Origin: an uncultured Candidatus Saccharibacteria bacterium
Lineage (GTDB): Bacteria; Patescibacteriota; Minisyncoccia; UBA6257; UBA9933
NCBI GenBank assembly: GCA_964642155.1
Contig: CAZXNT010000004.1
Span: forward strand, 2,040-66,039
Length of the DNA: 64,000 nt
Reading direction: 5' to 3'
Under the pieces are notes generated by a model. That model saw nothing but the letters and a program-made list of their open reading frames with translations, was not told the origin of the DNA and did no database searches. This document shows positions 36,684 through 45,076 of this stretch, one piece after another. A program made the position numbers and the translations under genes. Position 1 is the stretch's first letter; each line of letters starts with the position of its first letter.

Positions 36684-36839
36684 ATCCAATATAAAACCAC
36701 TCTTTAAAGATGGGTTTTGCGCCATTATTAAAATACATCCCAGTAAATTTTTCAATGAAAAATGATTGAAAAATTTACTGCTTTAGCGATAAATTCTTTT
36801 ATTAAAATTTAAGAAAAAAGAAAGACGCCGTACCCGAAG

Positions 36840-37130
36840 GTCGTGCGCCTGATGACTAGAGAGAAGAGAAAGAAACATGTTAGATTGGCTCGAAGACATA
36901 GGTCGGTGCTCGCTGACTGAAGCAACAGCCTCCAGTCATTGAGTCTTTGAAGAGCATACGCCACCTCTCTTTGCTCGGGTCGCTGTGTCGAATCAACGCG
37001 AACTCGGTTGTCTCTCCGGGATAGAGCTTGAGACTTTCGATCTCAATCTCCTGTGTAGGCTGATGCCCGCCAGTCCCGACGCGACAAACGATGGCTTCGT
37101 CGATCACTTCTCCATTTTCGAGGATTTTAA
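36840..37130. other. GC-anomalous (about 50% GC) about 290-bp segment with no convincing gene (foreign fragment or structured RNA)
   Basis: Sharp compositional shift versus about 33% GC flanks; only short overlapping ORFs (36880..37107 -, 36985..37368 +). Confidence 0.3.
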
Positions 37131-37133
37131 CTT

Positions 37134-37499
37134 TTATTCCTTTACCGAAACCATTATCACGGAAATAAGAGGTTTATCTAATTGCCACCAAACTACAATC
37201 GCAGATAAAGCGGCGATCAAAATAGCAGTGTCGCTTTTTGTTATATTTTTTGTTCCATACTTTAGTGAGAATAAAAAGACGGCAATAACAAAAAGTGTTC
37301 CAACTGTTAAATTAAGCGCACCCCAACCACCGCCACCATACCAAATCCCCAAAACCGCAGTTCCTTGAGTGATTGCCCATATTAGCCAAGTATAGGCGTG
37401 CGGTTTGGTTTTTAATAAAAAAGTATCTCTCAAATACGGAAAGAAGGCGGCAACTCCGATAATCGTGGCAATTATGGTAAGAATTATTTTTGTATCCAT
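37134..37499 (-). CDS. Hypothetical 4-TM membrane protein
   Basis: 121 aa, hydrophobic with GGGGWG motif. Confidence 0.35.
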   Translation of the reverse strand: MDTKIILTIIATIIGVAAFFPYLRDTFLLKTKPHAYTWLIWAITQGTAVLGIWYGGGGWGALNLTVGTLFVIAVFLFSLKYGTKNITKSDTAILIAALSAIVVWWQLDKPLISVIMVSVKE

Positions 37500-37501
37500 A
37501 A

Positions 37502-37822
37502 TTAATTTTCTATTGGATAAATATCAAAAGCAACTTCCTCGTATGGATGGATTGCTTTTACTTTTTCAATAACGTTTTTCAAAATTTCTCGTGGCACAAT
37601 TACTTCAATTCTTTCTTCTTCGACAGCTTCGTGTTTTCCGGATTCACCAATAGTGGGGTTTGTTTTTTCATTTCCACGAAAACGGCCAGTGCCGCGAGAA
37701 GAAAAAGAGCAAAAGTCATAGTTTCCAATTTTGCCAGCTCCGACTTCGCCAAGAGCTTGACGCACCGCGTCAGCGTGAAAAATCGGGACAAAGATAACAA
37801 TTTTTACATTTTTAGTTTCCAT
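37502..37822 (-). CDS. NIF3/YqfO C-terminal-like (CutA/PII-like fold) small protein
   Basis: 106 aa; GAGKIGNYDFCSFSSRGTGRFRG...AIHPYEEVAFDIYPI resembles the C-terminal domain of NIF3-family proteins. Confidence 0.4.
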   Translation of the reverse strand: METKNVKIVIFVPIFHADAVRQALGEVGAGKIGNYDFCSFSSRGTGRFRGNEKTNPTIGESGKHEAVEEERIEVIVPREILKNVIEKVKAIHPYEEVAFDIYPIEN

Positions 37823-38017
37823 ACTTATTTCAAAAACTTGTCCATTGAGATACCAGTTTTCTTTTCCAAGTCTTTTCCGGTGGCCTCTATTTCCTCGTCA
37901 TTCATTTTTCTTTCATTGATTCCATGTTCGTAAATAATTACTTCAATAGCTCATCAACCGAAACATCAAGCGCATTGGCGATTTTTTTCAAATCGTATTT
38001 AATATAACTTTTATTAT

Positions 38018-38280
38018 GTGCTGTAATTATACACTTTGCGCGAACCTTTTTCGAGCGGAAAGACCAATGACTTCGCACGCTCCGCGTGAGTGGTGGCTCT
38101 GACCAAAATCGTACGCGCGGAGCGCGTGGTGAAGCGAACTCTGCGCGCCTCGTCCGCTCCCTTCGGTCGCGGGAGCAAAAACCAAAAATTTTCCTTCCTT
38201 TCTTTTAGATTCTCGGCGGGGGGTGTGGGGGGAGCCGACAAAAAATGGAAAGGAAATTTTTGGTTTTGCTTCGCCACTAC
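38018..38280. repeat. IR1-L: left copy of an about 265-bp inverted repeat
   Basis: Near-identical reverse complement at 40616..40881; internal 22-bp hairpin flanking a G6-TGT-G6 run; ORFs 38014..38277(-) and 38090..38299(+) are artefacts of the repeat. Confidence 0.85.
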
Positions 38281-38566
38281 AGACTACGAAATGAACTAAT
38301 TCTATTTTATCACTTTAGGTGATACCTTGTCGCTCATTTCTCCGTCCTTGCGGCGAGACGAGGTGCCTCCTCTAGGTGTTTGGTGGATTTATCTGCTCTT
38401 GTAAAAGCGGAGGTCAGGCTTCCACAGAAGAGTTTTATCGCCGTTCTGTTGGTGTGTTGATGCCTGACCTCAATAGACTTTCTCCTTTTCATTATTAACG
38501 TAATCATTTGAAATATGACCCCCGTATGAGATGCTCCCCTCGCTCACCAAAATAAATAACGGCTTC

Positions 38567-40324
38567 CTATCGCTCGGGGGCATATTTTTTACATTTTTTA
38601 TATTCATTGTATTTATCATGAGCATCTGGTCTGCTACCATAGTCAATATTCCATTTTATCGATGGGTCAGATACAAAAGTAGCTGAATCAATTCCTTCAA
38701 TTATAAAAATTGCTGATTTTTGCCATTCATATTCTTTACCATAACAATATAGATGGTCCTTGTCAGCCGTATAAAGATCATTAATAACCCTGAATGTTTT
38801 CGGGTCAGCATCAATTTTCGTTAATGTACAACCTTCATAACAAAGAACGGCATATACACCGCGATTATCCTTAGCATATCTATCTGATAGTGCCTCAAAA
38901 TACCTTGTATCTGACCCACTAAGGGTGTCACCGAAACCACTGAAATACACTCTTCTATTATCTCTAGCAAAACTATCATTAATCACCGTGAAGGAATCGT
39001 GGTCAGCTCCGTCTAACATTTCCGCACGACTGCCGCTATATGGATCATAGTCAAAACGATAAATATTTTTTTCATCTTCAGCATAAATACTACCGAGTAT
39101 TTTGAACGTATTTCTTGTTGAAACACCCAAGGGGCAAAATCTTTCATCAGAAAGACTGCCATACTCAATACCATTTACTGAGTTTTTTATTGCCCAGTAT
39201 TCATTCAATTTAGTTACGCCGTCACTAGGGCGAGTAGGAACACAATCTCGGTTGAAGCTGGTGGTCGTAGCTAATTTAATACTCCTTATCACTTTATCAA
39301 GTTCATCTGCAAGTTTTCTCCCGTATTTCAAAGACATTGTTTCGAAACGAAATATAATAATTTTATCTTGTATCTTTACGTAGAATGAAAAAGTGCCGAA
39401 CATCTCGGATGGTTGATGGGTTAGCGTATAAGATAAACCACTATCAGTTCTTGATTCTTTACATTTTAGTTCAAAATAAAAATCAATAATCTGAACAGCA
39501 TTGTCACAATTCAAATCATCCGCTTTTATGTTTTTTATGCTTGAATCAAGATTGGAAAAGTGCTTCAAAAAGTCTGAGGAAGTGGAAGCTGAAAATATAT
39601 AAACTCTGCCTGCTCCACCAAATTCAGGCAGGTCTGAAGGTATAAGGTAGAGAATAGCTCCCGAATTCGAGGGTTCAAATTTATTTTCTCTTAATCCCCA
39701 ATCTGCCGGGTATACAAAAGAAAATCCTAATATTGTATTTTTATACAACTTGGGGGTGGCGTTTGCAGTCGCCACTGCTTGCGGTCCGTTCGATCTTGTT
39801 GGAGTTTGAAATCGCTCAACTTCGCCTTTCAGTTCGGCAATTTGTTTCGTCGCTTCCTCTTGGCCTTTCTTGCTTGCTTCAATTGCTTGCGTGATTGCCT
39901 CTTTTGCCTCATCGGGGACCTTAATTAAAATGGTGGCTAACACATCTTGATTTCTTGAGTTGTTGTCTGCAATCGAGTTGAGCAAAGTTTCCGCCTGTCC
40001 TTTGTCTTTAACTTCTTTTGATTTTTCTGTCGCTAACGCAATATTGCTTTCATAATTGGCGATAGCCGTTTTAACCCCGTCCGGATTCTTTTCTTCCGCA
40101 ATGGCTTCTATTTCAGCTAAACGCTCATCAGCATAACCTAACGCTTTCTTGGCTTTGCTTTCAGAATCAAAAGTGAAGAAAAGACCTATATTTTCAAAAG
40201 CGGTGTCAAAGAAATAGAAAAAACTTCCTGGCTTAACGCCCGCATTTGTAGCCGCGGACACTTGCACTGGTACAACAAAAGCAAGTGAGATAAGGAGTAC
40301 CGACAGTGTGGTTAGTTTTTTCAT
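38567..40324 (-). CDS. Secreted protein with N-terminal DUF5667-like helical domain and C-terminal DKNYY-type repeats
   Basis: 585 aa; signal peptide; KPGSFFYFFDTAFENI block; repeated YAKDNRGVY / YTADKDHLY / ARDNRRVYF motifs. Confidence 0.5.
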   Translation of the reverse strand: MKKLTTLSVLLISLAFVVPVQVSAATNAGVKPGSFFYFFDTAFENIGLFFTFDSESKAKKALGYADERLAEIEAIAEEKNPDGVKTAIANYESNIALATEKSKEVKDKGQAETLLNSIADNNSRNQDVLATILIKVPDEAKEAITQAIEASKKGQEEATKQIAELKGEVERFQTPTRSNGPQAVATANATPKLYKNTILGFSFVYPADWGLRENKFEPSNSGAILYLIPSDLPEFGGAGRVYIFSASTSSDFLKHFSNLDSSIKNIKADDLNCDNAVQIIDFYFELKCKESRTDSGLSYTLTHQPSEMFGTFSFYVKIQDKIIIFRFETMSLKYGRKLADELDKVIRSIKLATTTSFNRDCVPTRPSDGVTKLNEYWAIKNSVNGIEYGSLSDERFCPLGVSTRNTFKILGSIYAEDEKNIYRFDYDPYSGSRAEMLDGADHDSFTVINDSFARDNRRVYFSGFGDTLSGSDTRYFEALSDRYAKDNRGVYAVLCYEGCTLTKIDADPKTFRVINDLYTADKDHLYCYGKEYEWQKSAIFIIEGIDSATFVSDPSIKWNIDYGSRPDAHDKYNEYKKCKKYAPER

Positions 40325-40328
40325 ATCT

Positions 40329-40550
40329 CTATTTTATAAAATAGTTAATATCTTTACTGTACATTTTCGCAAAGGTCTGAAGTTCAACAACATCAACCCT
40401 CTGCTGTCCCGATTCTACATTAGAAATATGCGATTGCGGACGCTTCAATTTCTTTGCAACCTGAACCTGTGTCAATCCCGCCTCCTCCCGAGCTTTCCGT
40501 AATCGCTCGACAAAATAAGCATATTCCTTTGTTCTTATTGACCTAGTCAT
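40329..40550 (-). CDS. XRE-family helix-turn-helix transcriptional regulator
   Basis: 73 aa; LRKAREEAGLTQVQVAKKL...SHISNVESG HTH_XRE; 4 nt upstream of the 585-aa gene. Confidence 0.7.
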   Translation of the reverse strand: MTRSIRTKEYAYFVERLRKAREEAGLTQVQVAKKLKRPQSHISNVESGQQRVDVVELQTFAKMYSKDINYFIK

Positions 40551-40615
40551 ATATTACCATTGTCTATCTAAAGATTCAATATCCAAAGTTTAGATACTGT
40601 GGTAAACTGAATTTG

Positions 40616-40881
40616 GTAGCGGCGAAGCAAAACCAAAAATTTCCTTTCCATTTTTTGTCGGCTCCCCCCACACCCCCCGCCGAGAATCTAAAAGAAAGGA
40701 AGGAAAATTTTTGGTTTTTGCTCCCGCGACCGAAGGGAGCGGACGAGGCGCGCAGAGTTCGCTTCACCACGCGCTCCGCGCGTACGATTTTGGTCAGAGC
40801 CACCACTCACGCGGAGCGTGCGAAGTCATTGGTCTTTCCGCTCGAAAAAGGTTCGCGCAAAGTGTATAATTACAGCACCAT
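40616..40881. repeat. IR1-R: right (inverted) copy of the about 265-bp repeat
   Basis: Reverse complement of 38018..38280 with one indel at the outer end; ORFs 40576..40806(-) and 40613..40975(+) mirror the artefactual ORFs in IR1-L. Confidence 0.85.
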
Positions 40882-40972
40882 AAGTAACTTGTTCGGAAAT
40901 GACTGCTCCGCGCGGCGAGTACGCCGCGCTCCGCAGGGCAAAATCCGCTTTTGTTTTCGCCGTGAAATCCCA
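40875..40972. repeat. IR2-L: left copy of a 98-bp inverted repeat (overlaps the end of IR1-R by about 7 bp)
   Basis: gcaccataagtaacttgttcggaaatgactgctccgcgcggcgagtacgcc...gtgaaatccca; reverse complement at 42426..42523 with one mismatch. Confidence 0.85.
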
Positions 40973-40988
40973 TAATTCGCCCCAGCGT

Positions 40989-42662
40989 ATGGAAACAACT
41001 CAAACCAAAACTAAATGCGTTCTCTACGCTCGCAAGAGCACCGAGGAGGACGACAAGCAAGTGATGAGCATAGACGCTCAACTTTTTGAGCTGAAAGAAT
41101 ATGCTCGTAGAGAACGCATTGAAATCGTAAAAGTATTTACGGAAGCGAAAAGCGCAAAGAAGCCCGGGCGAGACCAATTCGCCAAAATGATTGCGTATAT
41201 TGAAAGTTCTAGTGAACCGCTTGGTATTTTGGCATGGCACCCAGACCGTCTCGCCCGTAATTCTGTTGATGGCGGAAAAATTATCTATCTCATAGACATC
41301 AACAGAATTGCTTCTTTGCGCTTTCCGCAGTTTTGGTTTGAGCCAACTCCGCAAGGGAAATTCATGTTGCAAGTGGCGTTCGGACAAAGCAAGTATTTCT
41401 CGGATAACTTAGTGGAAAATGTGAAGCGCGGTATCCGCCAAAAACTCCGCCGTGGCGAATGGCTGACGCTCGCTCCTTTGGGATATGTGAATAATTACAA
41501 AACGCGGAACATTGACCCTCACCCTACATATTCCAAAGTTATCAAGCGAGCGTTTGAGGAATACGCCACCGGAAAATATACCCTTGTCGGTTTAGCGGAG
41601 TTTTTGGCGGAGCATAGCATTGTCCAAAAGAAAGGAACGTCACTTGCCAAAGTTTCCGTCGTGAAAATGCTCACGAACAGGGCATATTTGGGATTTGTAA
41701 AATTTCATGGCGAATATCACGACGGAAACTTTGAGCCGATTCTTTCCCCGACACTGTTTGAAGCAGTGCAGAAGGTTTTGAAATCCAAGCAACGACCGCG
41801 CAAACAAAAGGAGAGGTATGATTTTCCATTTACGCAGTTTGCGCGGTGCGGCGAGTGCGGCAATATGATCACGGCGCAATATGCCACTAACCGCTTCGGC
41901 ACTCGCTATACTTACTATCGTTGCACCAAGAAAAGCGGAAAGTGTAGCCAGCCGTATATTGCCGCTGACGCGCTCGCCGCTCAAGCGCAAAGACTGCTTC
42001 AATCAGTGTCGCTCCCTCTCGAAGAAATTGCGATTATGGAAAAGCAGATAAACGTATGGAAAAACGAGTCAATTTCTTTGAGAGGAGAAGTTGCCCAAAA
42101 TCTGAAATCCAAGCTTTCCGAGGCGCAGGAGAAGCTAGACCGGCTTGTGTCGCTCTATCTCGACCAAGATATCGAGCGCGACCTGTATCTCACTCGCAAA
42201 GACGCTCTCCTGCGCCAAAAAGCGAAGTTGGAGGAAAGTTTGGGAGATTTTGGGCAACAAGGAAAGAATCGGCTCGAACCCTTGTGGAGTTTCGTTTTGT
42301 CCTTGAAAGAAGCGGAAAAAGTAGCGCAAACAAAAAATTACGCCGAATGGCGCAACTTTTTCCGTTCTCTCGGCTCTAACCCCGAAATCAAGGACAAAAC
42401 GCTTTCAATCAATTGGGGCGAACTCTGGGATTTCACGGCGAAAACAAAAGCGGATTTTGCCCTGCGGAGCGCGGCGCACTCGCCGCGCGGAGCAGTCATT
42501 TCCGAACAAGTTACTTATGGTGCCCGGGGTGGGATTCGAACCCACAAACCTTTTGGGTCAAGGATTTTAAGTCCTCTGCGTAAACCGTTCCGCCACCCGG
42601 GCATATTTAAATTTCGAGGCCTGAGGCGGAATCGAACCGCCGTTATACCCAGCACCTCTTGA
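40989..42662 (+). CDS. Large serine recombinase (resolvase/invertase catalytic domain + recombinase domain + zinc ribbon)
   Basis: Start METTQTKTKCVLYARKSTEEDD (catalytic Ser), LAWHPDRLARN, zinc ribbon CGECGN...YYRCTKKSGKC; about 47% GC; ORF has no stop before 42662 and reads through IR2-R and two tRNA genes, so the true C-terminus is uncertain. Confidence 0.8.
   Translation: METTQTKTKCVLYARKSTEEDDKQVMSIDAQLFELKEYARRERIEIVKVFTEAKSAKKPGRDQFAKMIAYIESSSEPLGILAWHPDRLARNSVDGGKIIYLIDINRIASLRFPQFWFEPTPQGKFMLQVAFGQSKYFSDNLVENVKRGIRQKLRRGEWLTLAPLGYVNNYKTRNIDPHPTYSKVIKRAFEEYATGKYTLVGLAEFLAEHSIVQKKGTSLAKVSVVKMLTNRAYLGFVKFHGEYHDGNFEPILSPTLFEAVQKVLKSKQRPRKQKERYDFPFTQFARCGECGNMITAQYATNRFGTRYTYYRCTKKSGKCSQPYIAADALAAQAQRLLQSVSLPLEEIAIMEKQINVWKNESISLRGEVAQNLKSKLSEAQEKLDRLVSLYLDQDIERDLYLTRKDALLRQKAKLEESLGDFGQQGKNRLEPLWSFVLSLKEAEKVAQTKNYAEWRNFFRSLGSNPEIKDKTLSINWGELWDFTAKTKADFALRSAAHSPRGAVISEQVTYGARGGIRTHKPFGSRILSPLRKPFRHPGIFKFRGLRRNRTAVIPSTS
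42426..42523. repeat. IR2-R: right copy of the 98-bp inverted repeat, ending exactly at the 3' end of tRNA-Leu(TAA)
   Basis: tgggatttcacggcg...aagttacttatggtgc; the terminal tggtgc is the reverse complement of the tRNA discriminator+CCA. Confidence 0.85.
42521..42602 (-). tRNA. tRNA-Leu (TAA)
   Basis: Manual fold on minus strand: acceptor GCCCGGG/CCCGGGC, anticodon loop CTTAAAA, long variable arm, T-arm GTGGG-TTCGAAT-CCCAC, encoded CCA. Confidence 0.8.
42603..42661 (-). other. Truncated tRNA-like fragment (acceptor + T-arm only) between tRNA-Cys and tRNA-Leu
   Basis: minus strand cgaggcc-tcaagaggtgctgggtataac-ggcgg-ttcgatt-ccgcc-tca-ggcctcg; lacks D and anticodon arms. Confidence 0.4.
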
Positions 42663-42733
42663 GGCCTCGGGGAGAATCGAACTCCCGTATAAGAGTTTTG
42701 CAGACTCTCGCCTTACCACTTGGCTACGAGGCC
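42662..42733 (-). tRNA. tRNA-Cys (GCA)
   Basis: Manual fold: acceptor GGCCTCG/CGAGGCC, 3-bp D-stem, anticodon stem AGAGT/ACTCT loop CTGCAAA, T-arm GGGAG-TTCGATT-CTCCC. Confidence 0.8.
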
Positions 42734-42970
42734 ATATTTTCTTTTTAGTAATTCTTTTTGTTGATGGTTTTTAAGAAATTTTTCATATTTCATAGCTTCA
42801 CTTCTTGAGTTGCGTTCATAATATTCAAGTAATTTCCATGGGCGATACGCTTTTGTTGATTTTACTTTTCCTTGATTATGTAAAATAATTCTTTTTTCAA
42901 GATTTGCCGTACTGCCAATATAGATATCATTATTTTTATCGCTTTTCAAGACATAAATATAGTAATTCAT
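42713..42970 (-). CDS. GIY-YIG nuclease-family protein (free-standing homing-endonuclease-like)
   Basis: Probable start MNYYIYVLKSDKNNDIYIGSTANLEKRIILHNQG (GIY-YIG core); stop codon lies inside the D-loop of tRNA-Cys; ORF-track start 43036 is likely an upstream over-extension. Confidence 0.65.
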   Translation of the reverse strand: MNYYIYVLKSDKNNDIYIGSTANLEKRIILHNQGKVKSTKAYRPWKLLEYYERNSRSEAMKYEKFLKNHQQKELLKRKYGLVAKW

Positions 42971-42974
42971 AAGA

Positions 42975-43043
42975 GTTTTGTCTGGCTTCGCCAGATCTCG
43001 CGTAGCGAGACAGACCCTCGCTTTACCACTTAGCAACCAGGCC
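42975..43043 (-). pseudogene. Divergent 5' half of a tRNA-Cys-like gene carrying a 30-nt twin-hairpin insertion in the anticodon loop; 3' half replaced by the GIY-YIG ORF
   Basis: minus strand ggcctggttgctaagtggtaaagcgagggtctg + tctcgctacgcgaga|tctggcgaagccaga + caaaactcttATG; acceptor 5' strand does not pair with the downstream tRNA-Cys 3' strand. Confidence 0.5.
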
Positions 43044-44763: not shown

Positions 44764-44827
44764 GGACACAGTCCGCCAGAGCTTTAGCGACGGCTGGACA
44801 CAGTCCGCAAGAAGTTTGCGACGGCGG
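44764..44827. repeat. Two tandem 32-bp GC-rich repeats each containing a ggac-aca-gtcc hairpin, preceded by a gcccgc-cata-gcgggc hairpin
   Basis: ggacacagtccgccagagctttagcgacggct / ggacacagtccgcaagaagtttgcgacggcgg; directly downstream of tRNA-Ser, upstream of a GIY-YIG gene. Confidence 0.55.
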
Positions 44828-44839
44828 GATGATTAAGTT

Positions 44840-45076
44840 ATGTATATAGTTTATATTTTAAAATGTATTGATGGAAAATCATATACTGGTTGTACAGAAA
44901 ATTTAGAAGAAAGATTAAAACGACATAATAATGGTTATGTTCCAGCAACTGAAAATCATCGCCCTGTTAAACTTATAACACACATTGTGTTTAGTGATAA
45001 ATATAAAGCGTTTGAATTTGAAAAATATTTAAAATCTGGTTCTGGACGAGCATTTTTAAATAAACATTTATATTAG
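44840..45076 (+). CDS. GIY-YIG nuclease family protein (YhbQ-like)
   Basis: 78 aa; MYIVYILKCIDGKSYTGCTENLEERLKRHNNG matches the GIY-YIG core. Confidence 0.7.
   Translation: MYIVYILKCIDGKSYTGCTENLEERLKRHNNGYVPATENHRPVKLITHIVFSDKYKAFEFEKYLKSGSGRAFLNKHLY

Follow-up and report, generated by a model that had tools for sequence, protein, structure and literature searches.

Several described recombination systems bear a likeness to the locus presented here, although each of them differs from it in distinctive ways. Large serine recombinase (LSR) integrases, such as SPbeta SprA, phiC31, Bxb1, A118/LI and TP901-1, use the same three-domain enzyme with a catalytic Ser and perform conservative recombination at a short core between attP- and attB-type half-sites, in which a distal motif is displaced by about 5 bp between the two types. 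Unlike the phage enzymes, the present recombinase is not accompanied by phage genes and shares at most 27% identity with any phage or plasmid LSR. The element also departs from LSR integrases in targeting a wide range of tRNA genes at their 3' ends, such ends being the territory of tyrosine integrases, in retaining an intact inverted attP-like site once integrated, and in using the junction of the tRNA with its own D arm (tRNA/D, attL-like) as a target. As in hin, a serine recombinase gene lies within a segment bracketed by inverted sites. Hin, Gin, Cin and Pin are, however, small serine recombinases of about 190 aa with 26-bp sites, whose inversion changes the connected gene or promoter, whereas this locus combines a 511-aa LSR with identical arms of 110-263 nt, no change of connection and a strong polarity.

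Integrons rely on the tyrosine recombinase IntI, single-stranded attC hairpins and a stationary platform. The present element resembles them in its recombinase platform with a promoter-like site beside the recombination site, in its promoterless-looking, interchangeable cassettes, in arrays that grow platform-proximally and in the palindromes found between cassettes in related loci; it differs in that the LSR travels with its cassette, in its long inverted-repeat brackets and in its anchoring at a tRNA gene. Tn4451 (TnpX), Tn5397 (TndX), SCCmec (CcrAB) and IS607 are likewise small cargo elements excised and integrated by LSRs, and the targets of such serine-recombinase transposons and cassettes are a GA dinucleotide or rlmH. 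To our knowledge, long inverted-repeat brackets are absent from all of them, and the present element has another target and scores far under the family cut-offs (the nearest NCBIfam models, CcrB, XisF and CcrA, are all sub-threshold, with CcrB at 85.8 bits against a cut-off of 900).

Finally, tycheposons are flanked by direct repeats of tRNA fragments and often contain replication genes; tyrosine recombinases are found in 910 of 937, and a few encode LSRs (bioRxiv 10.1101/2020.12.28.424599). The element shares with them the integration of cargo at tRNA genes of streamlined genomes and the formation of tandem arrays, but it has just 4-6 nt in common with the tRNA, its repeats are inverted, and it carries no replication gene. 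The searchable literature yielded no description of this element. Its recombinase is a standard LSR, and the novelty lies in the target and in the surrounding architecture: the segment 38018-42523 is probably an integrated unit from a family of mobile elements with two modules that is common in CPR/Patescibacteria.

Architecture of the locus

The window, a 64,000-nt stretch of DNA from an uncultured Candidatus Saccharibacteria bacterium, contains two nested inverted-repeat pairs at 38018-42523 (4.5 kb in total; Table 1). The length of their arms is far above chance expectation, and the region holds no other long repeats. Both pairs had been reported in the earlier note and are borne out, IR1 with 263 nt and a sole mismatch (38276 versus 40620) instead of about 265 bp, and IR2 with its 98-nt, one-mismatch stretch extending to 110-121 nt (97.3% identity and 3 mismatches over the outermost 110 nt). 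IR1-R and IR2-L do overlap, by exactly 4 nt (GCAC, 40875-40878); the 7-8 nt given previously would need a 1-nt indel at the left junction. A core common to all three junctions was likewise recovered, in the form GCAC. The last 6 nt of tRNA-Leu(taa), GCACCA, do form the outer end of IR2-R, with the IR2 boundary falling on acceptor nt 71-72, the discriminator and C74. The high GC content claimed for the recombinase region stands (0.45-0.50), but a background of about 0.33 does not, as the window mean is 0.376.

Table 1. Coordinates of the repeats, junctions and genes of the locus in the window
Feature	Position	Strand	Remarks
IR1 arms	38018-38280 and 40616-40878		263 nt, 1 mismatch
IR2 arms	40875-40995 and 42403-42523		121 nt at 93%
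Left flank	37134..38017	-	XRE 3' fragment and two genes
J1 core GTGC	38018..38021	.	A arm joined to left flank
IR1-L (A' arm)	38018..38280	-	promoter-like site 38054-38026 points outward, leftward
Cargo gene 2, DUF5667 + DKNYY-repeat protein, 585 aa	38567..40324	-	Pfam
Cargo gene 1, XRE-family HTH protein, 73 aa	40329..40550	-	Pfam HTH_31/HTH_3
IR1-R (A arm)	40616..40878	+	outer 45 nt = conserved 'A-end'
J2 core GCAC	40875..40878	.	A arm joined to D arm
IR2-L (D arm)	40875..40995	+	J2 right half-site and recombinase 5' UTR, 7 nt into ORF
Large serine recombinase gene	40989..42662	+	Pfam PF00239, PF07508, PF13408
IR2-R (D' arm)	42403..42523	-	traversed by 3' end of recombinase ORF
tRNA-Leu(taa)	42518..42602	-	ARAGORN; Rfam tRNA 60.6 bits; integration target
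J3 core	42520..42523	.	tRNA joined to D arm; GTGC on + strand, GCAC in tRNA sense

The recombinase module is bracketed by D arms and the cargo module by A arms. J2 is composed of the left half of J1 and the right half of J3, which is the footprint of site-specific recombination, and represents an attP-like site that is intact and lies in the opposite orientation to J1 and J3. All three are reciprocal pairings, in which the left arm is either the tRNA 3' end or the A-end and the right arm is either D or the sequence after the tRNA. The left (B-type) arm of J3 is the 3' end of tRNA-Leu(taa), ...GGGCACCA. This tRNA gene is alone among the 10 of the window in encoding CCA, which indicates that CCA is supplied by the element. 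The A-end follows the pattern GGTTCGCGC...TATAAT...GCAC and, as consensus and conservation suggest, may combine a P-type left half-site with a promoter-like site (TCGAAA-17-TATAAT in IR1-R, at 40842-40870, facing the recombinase). The inner part of IR1-R forms a hairpin (40629-40718, loop CCCCACACCCC), and the outer ~25 nt of IR2-R are the right half-site, followed by a GC hairpin whose position is the same among subfamilies while the stem varies, as compared by eye.

The recombinase carries Resolvase, Recombinase and Zn_ribbon_recom domains, the catalytic Ser in its YARKST sequence aligns with SprA/YokA (9dxh), and its homologues start with METTQ. Its conserved part extends to about 42430; reaching the junction without a stop, the ORF continues for 45 codons into the antisense tRNA. 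An open recombinase ORF traverses the D' arm in 28/28 loci checked, and the peptide beyond WGELWDF shows no conservation among them.

With regard to the cargo, a ~93% identical copy of the XRE gene is first in the L030 cassette, and the DUF5667/DKNYY protein is predicted to be secreted, an N-terminal signal peptide being visible in its sequence. The left flank, probably a leftover of an older cassette, includes the final ~80 nt (3' end) of a further XRE gene (37938-38017, of which 37938-37987 is 86% identical to the 3' end of the XRE gene in L086) and genes for a 106-aa PII-like protein (37822..37502), homologues of which were found within IR-bracketed cassettes of L089, L090, L093 and L038, and for a 121-aa protein (37499..37134). 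The presence of an XRE-gene remnant instead of a terminator counts against the reading of the segment as an integrated unit; J1 is secondary in this window, either a pseudo-site or a deletion.

Recurrence of the architecture in CPR

More than 100 independent contigs of the ultra-small CPR bacteria, obtained in many studies and with many assemblers, show the same architecture. Of 81 loci examined, 56 have both flanks, all the comparative data being short-read assemblies, in which such repeats get mis-resolved. The recombinase is bracketed by repeats of at least 60 nt (60-150 nt) in 52 of the 56 complete genome loci, and a second pair of 137-372 nt surrounds 1.7-5.8 kb of cargo in 16 loci. In every locus tRNA/D, A/D and A/flank swap partners at the same 3-6-nt core, and the bases common to the cores of all loci, ...CA..., are the last acceptor base and the discriminator. 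The outer arm abuts the 3' end of a tRNA gene in 51/59 IR2 loci, representing 11 isotypes (Leu 23, Glu 6, Gly 5, Arg 3, Lys 3, Ile 3, Tyr 2, Phe 2, Ala 2, Met 1 and Cys 1). The recombinase points its 3' end at the tRNA in 51 loci versus 2-3 exceptions. Beyond the distal A arm, the flank is mostly a terminator hairpin, that is, the native downstream sequence of the tRNA. At least 120 metagenome contigs contain the exact 29-nt A-end, and the distance from TTCG to the core is 22-23 nt in the A-end (40/40 loci) versus 16-18 nt in the tRNA.

Median arm identity is 99.1% within loci versus 57% between loci, which indicates concerted evolution and supports the ongoing gene conversion that had been suggested from this locus. 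The cargo is interchangeable: it is unrelated between loci (transporters, restriction-modification, toxin-antitoxin and secreted proteins), and its GC content is often below that of the host locus.

Insertion polymorphism and alternative readings

Two metagenome contigs, L145 and L157, share 4599 nt at 100.000% identity and split exactly after ...GGTGC, where L157 contains an extra complete 3.4-kb unit (A2'-cargo2-A2/D2-rec2-D2') beside the same tRNA. This is a natural insertion polymorphism of the whole unit at the core. Similarly, L178 and L017 show 99.2% identity over 1902 nt, stopping at the core, with the same cassette and another neighbour. The whole unit (D-rec-D'/A'-cargo-A) occurs as an insertion at the core beside the tRNA, and units stack into chains with the newer unit closest to the tRNA; chains and recombinase-less derivatives are seen in L103, L201, L188, L212, L096-type loci, L162 and L011. 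For the strain studied here, an empty tRNA-Leu(taa) site and a circular intermediate were searched for, and none was found, which counts against the mobile-element reading. The three-junction logic, the recurring core and the presence or absence of whole units support and extend the composite tRNA-targeted mobile element that the earlier note had offered as one of its two readings.

Recombinase modules also occur between two tRNAs (L011, a reliable assembly because its arms are only 93.6% identical) or between two different A-ends (L157, L103), and in some recombinase-less sites a short perfect palindrome replaces the module between the tRNA and A' (L096, L100, L102, L112, L122, L148 and L189). 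These cases would suit D-rec-D' being by itself an IS-like transposon with 110-140-nt terminal inverted repeats and the cargo module a separate passenger. We nevertheless consider this unlikely: the single clean insertion polymorphism adds both modules as one unit, the A-end beside D is conserved in nearly all loci, the A1/D..D'/A2' arrangements are explained by chains, and the palindrome can form through recombinase deletion between D-arm hairpins, as in L162. A possible route for an IS-like module would be a double crossover replacing the palindromic terminator between two left arms (cassette exchange).

Additionally, IR2 could act through RNA: the recombinase mRNA would pair its 5' UTR with its own 3' end, and the folded transcript would hide the start codon or be cut, keeping expression low. 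In the main subfamily, IR2-L spans approximately the predicted transcription start to 7-8 nt inside the ORF, folding of the A/D strand gives z = -5.5, and the D'-encoded peptide is unconserved although the ORF stays open. However, the arms of the 45%-identity subfamily, which match these in length and identity, are situated 150-210 nt upstream of the start and for the most part outside the ORF, and the outer arm boundary is always the recombination core. This explanation is improbable, a role in RNA being compatible with the DNA-level explanation but not sufficient for it.

The other reading of the earlier note was an invertible phase-variable surface-protein locus with two switchable segments. 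In such a locus the recombinase would flip 38281-40615 and/or its own gene and so switch the secreted DUF5667/DKNYY protein on and off. Both segments are indeed bracketed by long, near-perfect inverted repeats with a common core, there is one candidate cargo inversion (contigs L172 versus L179), and in L016 and L043 the tRNA is found next to the 5' end of the recombinase. Short-read assemblers, however, cannot orient segments between arms that are perfect over 437 nt (L172/L179) or at least 99% identical (L016/L043), and most 'flipped' contigs proved on inspection to be chains of units. The IR1 arms are identical for 258 nt, so inversion alters neither promoter nor ORF; the promoter-like site of the arm points outward, and the cargo differs wholly between loci. 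Real genes point away from the recombinase-proximal arm in ~13/16 bracketed cassettes, and this orientation relative to the recombinase is kept also in L089 and L157. The conserved cargo orientation and the symmetric arms make such a switch very improbable, and the proposal is not supported.

Finally, that the repeats were collapsed or chimeric in a metagenome-assembled genome is hardly credible and effectively refuted: although such repeats cause artefacts elsewhere (palindromic contigs L154 and L211, and many contigs that stop inside arms), independent same-strain Logan contigs of three runs (SRR13723394, -96 and -97) reproduce the unique segments, retain the distinguishing mismatch and stop inside the arms after exactly k-1 = 30 nt (in L001 the count starts at that mismatch, in L083/L084 at the outer arm boundary), the IR2 arms are distinguishable at 3 sites, and the architecture recurs across studies and assemblers as described above.

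Proposed mechanism

As a mobile element, the unit would read, in tRNA sense, tRNA-Leu / D - recombinase (antisense) - D' / A' - XRE, DUF5667 - A / flank, where each slash is the same 4-nt core GCAC. The LSR would cut within the core and recognise two kinds of left arm, the universally conserved T-loop/acceptor end of tRNA genes as the attB type and the A-end as the attP type. The GTTCG motif lies 4-6 bp further from the core in the A-end than in the tRNA, a displacement that fits LSR attP versus attB half-sites. The D arm would restore the tRNA by providing CCA, and would also contribute the recombinase 5' UTR. A second intact A/D site, inverted, would lie between the two modules and would give rise to the inverted repeats; as each module is bracketed by inverted sites, the recombinase would be unable to excise the modules separately. 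Gene conversion would hold the arms identical.

A circle with two identical inverted A/D sites is expected to integrate in either orientation, and the observed polarity (~51 versus 2-3) would need selection or an unknown asymmetry. According to canonical LSR rules, tRNA/D is attL-like and not a target, but it was targeted in L157, so the enzyme may follow different rules.

The repeats would then be duplicated att arms of a mobile element, and not a surface-protein switch. We think it likely that the element family is very widespread and previously undescribed, its LSR inserting variable gene cassettes precisely at tRNA gene 3' ends.

Organisation of the unit and its recombinase

The unit at 38018-42523 is built of two modules, each bracketed by long inverted repeats, and both repeat pairs described in the earlier note are present (table below). 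The A arms (IR1) enclose the cargo, an XRE regulator and a secreted DUF5667/DKNYY protein, and differ from each other at a single position, 38276. The D arms (IR2) enclose the recombinase gene, match over 110 nt at 97.3% and can be extended to 121 nt at 93%. On the plus strand the layout reads B'/A'-cargo-A/D-rec-D'/C', where B is the left flank, C the 3' end of tRNA-Leu(taa), rec the recombinase and a prime the opposite orientation. The A and D arms meet at the 4-nt core, GCAC, and the outer 6 nt of the right D arm (GCACCA) are, as had been noticed, the last 6 nt of the tRNA gene. The middle junction (A/D) combines the left half of A/B with the right half of C/D, and, judged from the sequence, this three-junction pattern is the one that reciprocal site-specific recombination would leave. 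Among the ten tRNA genes in the window, tRNA-Leu(taa) is the only one that encodes CCA, the other nine ending without it; as this is also the only element-bearing tRNA gene, the CCA must come from the D arm, which places the crossover at GCAC or to its left. Cleavage is predicted to be staggered by 2 nt within GCAC, probably at CA. The host presumably adds CCA enzymatically, with the element donating a genomic copy. The recombinase region has a GC content of 45-50%, against 37.6% for the window. The repeats are real and not an assembly artefact, a possibility that the earlier note had raised: Logan assemblies from three runs of the same strain match the unique segments at 100%, their contigs end exactly 30 nt (k-1) inside the arms, and the one distinguishing mismatch is preserved. 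Two ORFs of 87 and 120 aa within IR1 were taken as non-coding, since they have no family and are of low complexity.

The enzyme encoded between the D arms is a large serine recombinase (LSR) of 511 aa. It has the LSR features of a Resolvase catalytic domain (PF00239, E 2.9e-22), in which the serine of YARKST aligns with the catalytic-motif serine of SPbeta SprA/YokA (9dxh), then a Recombinase domain (PF07508, E 3.4e-12) and a zinc ribbon (Zn_ribbon_recom, PF13408, E 1.6e-9). LSRs integrate DNA by attP x attB recombination without cofactors and require a directionality factor for excision. The identity of the window enzyme to phage or plasmid LSRs is at most 27%, and its scores fall far under the cut-offs of the named NCBIfam families. 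Searches of viral contigs (IMG/VR), phages and plasmids returned no close relative, which rules out a phage or plasmid integrase; the features of a temperate phage are absent too, the unit holding the recombinase, the XRE gene and the secreted protein only. The longest recombinase ORF begins at ATG 40899, within IR2-L, and is 30 aa longer, while the homologues and the end of the repeat place the real start at ATG 40989. At the other end, the ORF is open throughout the D' arm in 28 of 28 loci checked; the peptide beyond WGELWDF is not conserved, and its tail past the core measures 0-47 aa and varies with the target.

Features of the unit and its neighbourhood (positions in the window)
Feature	Position	Strand	Description
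Non-coding stretch	36727-36800		74 nt after ABC-3 permease gene; 90.5% identical to stretches in L100 and L130, contigs with recombinase-less cassettes at tRNA-Leu(gag)
GC-rich stretch	36800-37130		GC 0.43-0.48; between 121-aa gene and host ABC transporter
75-aa ORF	36880-37107	minus	Inside GC-rich stretch; no Pfam or NCBIfam family
106-aa protein	37502-37822	minus	Weak PII-like Pfam match; hundreds of CPR proteins 80-89% identical
Tail of another XRE gene	37938-38017		Last ~80 nt
A arms (IR1)	38018-38280 / 40616-40878		263 nt
Mirror-loop hairpins	40629-40718, 38178-38267		Loop (TTCC)TCCCCAGACCCCTCC or TTCCCCCCACACCCCCCTT; inside A arms
ORF-free stretch	38281-38566		285 nt from DUF5667 stop to IR1-L inner end; GC ~0.44; no match in Rfam search
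Core, IR1 meets IR2	40875-40878		GCAC
D arms (IR2), extended	40875-40995 / 42403-42523		121 nt
Mirror ORF	42338-42499	minus	By-product of the repeat
tRNA-Leu(taa)	42518-42602	minus	
Partial tRNA-Cys copy	43011-43043 / 42701-42733		85% copy of tRNA-Cys 5' half, just upstream of GIY-YIG ORF
Small GIY-YIG ORF	42713-43036	minus	Adjoins tRNA-Cys
Direct repeats	44764-44817		22 nt
Second GIY-YIG ORF	44840-45076		After tRNA-Ser(gct) and the direct repeats

Arms and junctions across CPR genomes

A search with the recombinase collected 6944 proteins at E <= 1e-10, more distant serine recombinases included, of which the best 120 are 56-90% identical to it and bear CPR/Patescibacteria names wherever the source is named. 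Eighty genome loci were fetched, and, in counts of loci with both flanks that include the window, the recombinase is bracketed by inverted repeats of 60-150 nt in 52 of 56. The arm at the recombinase 3' end adjoins the 3' end of an opposite-strand tRNA gene in 51 of 59 loci, covering 11 isotypes. A second repeat pair of 137-372 nt, mostly 98-100% identical, is found in 16 loci and encloses 1.7-5.8 kb directly upstream of the recombinase. The comparison with other CPR genomes that the earlier note had proposed shows the junction core to be general: at every locus the tRNA/D, A/D and A/flank junctions switch partner at the same 3-6 nt (GCAC for Leu; TCAC for Glu, Ile and Lys; CCAC for Ala; CTCC for Gly and Cys). 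A terminator hairpin usually follows the distal A arm, as would be expected downstream of a tRNA gene. At least 120 metagenome contigs were found by scanning to contain the exact 29-nt A-end, taken from the conserved outer part of the A arm. Beyond the core they continue into a D arm and recombinase, into a terminator followed by host DNA, into another cassette across a short palindrome (L188, L212), or through a short perfect palindrome into an antisense tRNA, which is a recombinase-less derivative (L096, L100, L102, L112, L122, L148, L189). One locus (L162) keeps only the D outer end and the D hairpin, and in another (L011) the recombinase module lies between two convergent tRNA-Leu genes. 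A related element from another metagenome (L194), with a recombinase 89% identical, occupies the same tRNA-Leu(taa)/tRNA-Cys site.

Arms of one locus are 99.1% identical in the median, and left arms of different loci 57%. This bears out the ongoing homogenisation that the earlier note had proposed, of which gene conversion between the arms would be the simplest cause. Long perfect palindromes (with 1875-nt arms in L211), or a recombinase on both sides of a cassette, occur in L154 and L211 and are most likely assembler artefacts arising from these inverted repeats; many CPR contigs stop 80-350 nt upstream of the recombinase.

In the A arm, the outer 45 nt (the A-end, AAAAAGGTTCGCGCAAAGTGTATAATTACA followed by GCAC) are conserved across subfamilies. 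A promoter scan predicts TCGAAA-17-TATAAT toward the core in both A arms, one copy being directed into D and the recombinase and the other outward from the element. In 40 of 40 loci the distance from the IR2 boundary to the A-end TTCG is 22-23 nt; for the T-loop TTCG/TTCA of the tRNA it is 16-18 nt, an offset of 4-6 nt (mode 6). In LSR att sites the distal motif, bound by the zinc ribbon, is displaced outward by about 5 bp in attP half-sites relative to attB ones, and on this rule the offset makes the A-end look like a P-type copy of the tRNA end. The T-loop, in turn, appears to be what makes many tRNAs usable by the family.

Further in, the A arm is variable, yet it holds hairpins whose mirror-repeat loop, CCCCA(G/C)ACCCC, is conserved; 59 distinct instances were found in the 1.56 Mb fetched, 48 of them within 450 nt of an A-end. 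Their stems covary, measure 7-22 bp and have many different sequences, and the motif stands in either orientation with respect to the end of the arm. Hairpins of a second type have CCCCAGA as their loop, and CCCCAG is also found directly ahead of the start codon of the recombinase. No match in the arms, mirror-loop hairpins included, came from Rfam searches with gathering or E-value thresholds. The D arm consists of the right half-site, an A-rich stretch and then (G/A)TAAC or AGA(A/G)AC, and in the main subfamily it extends 7-8 nt into the recombinase ORF. It also holds a GC hairpin whose stem, by inspection, differs between subfamilies; a MAFFT alignment of D arms from the different subfamilies yielded no consensus in RNAalifold, since their hairpins do not align by sequence, and covariation in this arm was assessed by inspection only. 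An intrinsic terminator is not claimed for the D hairpin, as its U-tracts are inconsistent and the scan did not flag it.

Movement at the core and alternative readings

Of the two readings offered in the earlier note, that of a composite tRNA-targeted mobile element is supported by a presence/absence of the whole unit at the core. The contigs L145 and L157, which come from sister metagenomes, share 4599 nt at 100.000% identity; this stretch holds tRNA-His, a flank and a unit A1'-cargo1-A1/D1-rec1-D1', and the contigs split exactly after ...GTTTTGGTGC. L145 then enters tRNA-Leu(gag), whereas L157 enters a complete second unit, A2'-cargo2-A2/D2-rec2-D2', and then stops at GGTGCCC, with which the same tRNA begins. 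The whole two-module unit thus inserts as one piece, at the core and beside the tRNA; the inserted unit has its recombinase 3' end toward the tRNA and its cargo gene pointing away from the internal A/D site. A further pair, L178 and L017, have a cassette in common (99.2% over 1902 nt) up to ...ACAGCAC, past which one contig continues with a terminator and the other with a D arm that belongs to a different recombinase subfamily. The breakpoints of L152/L195 are not located at cores. Related loci contain chains in which the newer unit adjoins the tRNA and each unit has its own recombinase; the window has one unit and a probable remnant of an older cassette. The recombinase module by itself (D-rec-D') has inverted repeats as element ends and sits between varied left arms; the sole clean polymorphism moves both modules. 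For the window strain, exact-protein look-ups for an empty site or alternative orientation gave only Logan contigs broken at the arms, and no clean empty site was seen among the other tRNA-Leu(taa) genes examined.

The other reading, a phase-variable switch of a surface protein, is not supported, and cargo inversion probably does not act as a switch. The arms are identical over 258 nt in IR1 and, with 3 mismatches, over 110 nt in IR2, so that the inner segment sees the same flanks in either orientation and inversion reconnects nothing; the cargo differs by locus, and orientation is conserved. The tRNA lies at the 3' end of the recombinase in 51 loci, with three exceptions: L016 and L043, whose arms are at least 99% identical and hence ambiguous in assembly, and L011, which has a tRNA on both sides. 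Five contigs that resemble flipped isomers, their recombinase lying antisense behind an A-end (L027, L103, L126, L132, L201), are actually chains of units, with the tRNA replaced by the A-end of a newer unit, and do not count as evidence of inversion. In favour of inversion, L172 and L179 carry the same cassette (99.97% identical) in opposite orientation to their flanks, between perfect arms of 437 nt, which may be either a real cargo inversion or a mis-resolved repeat.

Known systems match the unit in part. Hin and Gin are small serine recombinases (~190 aa) with a C-terminal HTH, unlike the 511-aa LSR, and their inversions reconnect a promoter or alternative gene ends, which identical arms do not. 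Arrays of the present family are reminiscent of integrons, whose IntI is, however, a tyrosine recombinase. Islands of tyrosine integrases, including tycheposons, are flanked by direct tRNA repeats of tens of nt, whereas here the tRNA overlap is 4-6 nt and the long repeats are inverted; like tycheposons, the element is an integrative cargo island at tRNA genes. Relative to phage and plasmid LSRs, tycheposons and integrons, it differs in the combination of enzyme and target, the 4-6-nt tRNA overlap and the inverted-repeat brackets on both modules. The unit is a new architectural variant of the LSR integrative element, one that is widespread in CPR. The searchable full-text literature yielded no description of such an architecture, with an internal inverted attP-like site and each module bracketed by inverted sites.

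A broader reading, tentative and on balance doubtful, is that CPR possess an integron-like, self-mobile cassette-accretion system in which an LSR reads the universal T-loop and acceptor end of tRNA genes. The type of left arm, tRNA end or A-end mimic, would alone decide the identity of a site, the right side being irrelevant, and any tRNA-type site could recombine with any A-type site. New units would stack at the tRNA, modules would be exchanged, and the recombinase module could invert. Site choice by the left arm alone would fit the chains, L011 and the fixed cargo orientation. The inverted-site brackets would guard a module from separate excision, amounting to a natural recombinase-mediated cassette exchange, and the conserved A-arm hairpins, whose loops are mirror repeats (CCCCAGACCCC), would represent a new accessory element. 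A difficulty for the mobile-element reading itself is that the L157 insertion implies a tRNA/D target, which is attL-like and which canonical LSR rules would not allow. Excision between the left-flank and tRNA junctions would yield a circle with two identical inverted A/D sites, from which integration either way is expected, contrary to the observed polarity. Module protection, module exchange and control of recombinase expression are possible reasons for keeping the internal inverted site.

A probable older cassette, cargo and significance for CPR

The left flank of the window unit is not a terminator: it begins with the tail of another XRE gene, and then come the PII-like gene of 106 aa and a gene of 121 aa. 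Proteins 80-89% identical to the 106-aa product are encoded within cassettes bracketed by inverted repeats in L089 (beside a recombinase and tRNA-Ser), L090, L093 and L038. The XRE tail and these cassette-borne homologues make a decayed remnant of an older cassette the most likely origin of the flank, which fits accretion at the tRNA; the GC-rich stretch beyond could be its decayed end. The 106-aa gene was rejected as a host marker for the empty site, being itself cassette-associated, so that the flank is not plain host DNA. It recurs at the end of XRE-led cassettes whose other genes are unrelated (RibD_C, AAA_15/21, HNH+Ymh, NUDIX), and its product may serve the element rather than be cargo. 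The GIY-YIG ORFs beside tRNAs may be another tRNA-associated selfish gene. Downstream of tRNA-Ala in L086 (5705-6273) there are two more partial copies of the 3' end (GAGTCCTCTCTGGTCCACCA), each after a unit of ~190 nt, and then an XRE-led cassette with the 106-aa gene; this is a signature of direct-repeat accretion, distinct from the inverted-repeat family.

The cargo is different in every locus, its GC content is below that of the surrounding locus in several, and its genes point away from the internal A/D site in about 13 of 16 cassettes, as well as in L089 and L157. Elsewhere it includes a branched-chain amino-acid ABC transporter, a Na+/solute symporter, MazF toxin, a type II restriction-modification system, a helicase-nuclease, an ADP-ribosyltransferase, NUDIX and HAD hydrolases, AAA_15/21 ATPases, and HNH and Ymh proteins.

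The apparent target of these LSRs is a sequence that every tRNA gene conserves, and they tolerate at least 11 isotypes, a tolerance that is, to our knowledge, unusual for the class. LSRs directed to tRNA genes are of interest for genome engineering, and the inverted internal site raises the question of the rules by which LSRs choose their sites. The family explains why so many CPR contigs end beside tRNA genes and the palindromic mis-assemblies found there. CPR have tiny genomes and, as far as we know, few recognised mobile elements; the family seems to give them a major route to accessory genes, its cargo ranging over transporters, restriction-modification, toxin-antitoxin, secreted proteins and ADP-ribosyltransferases.
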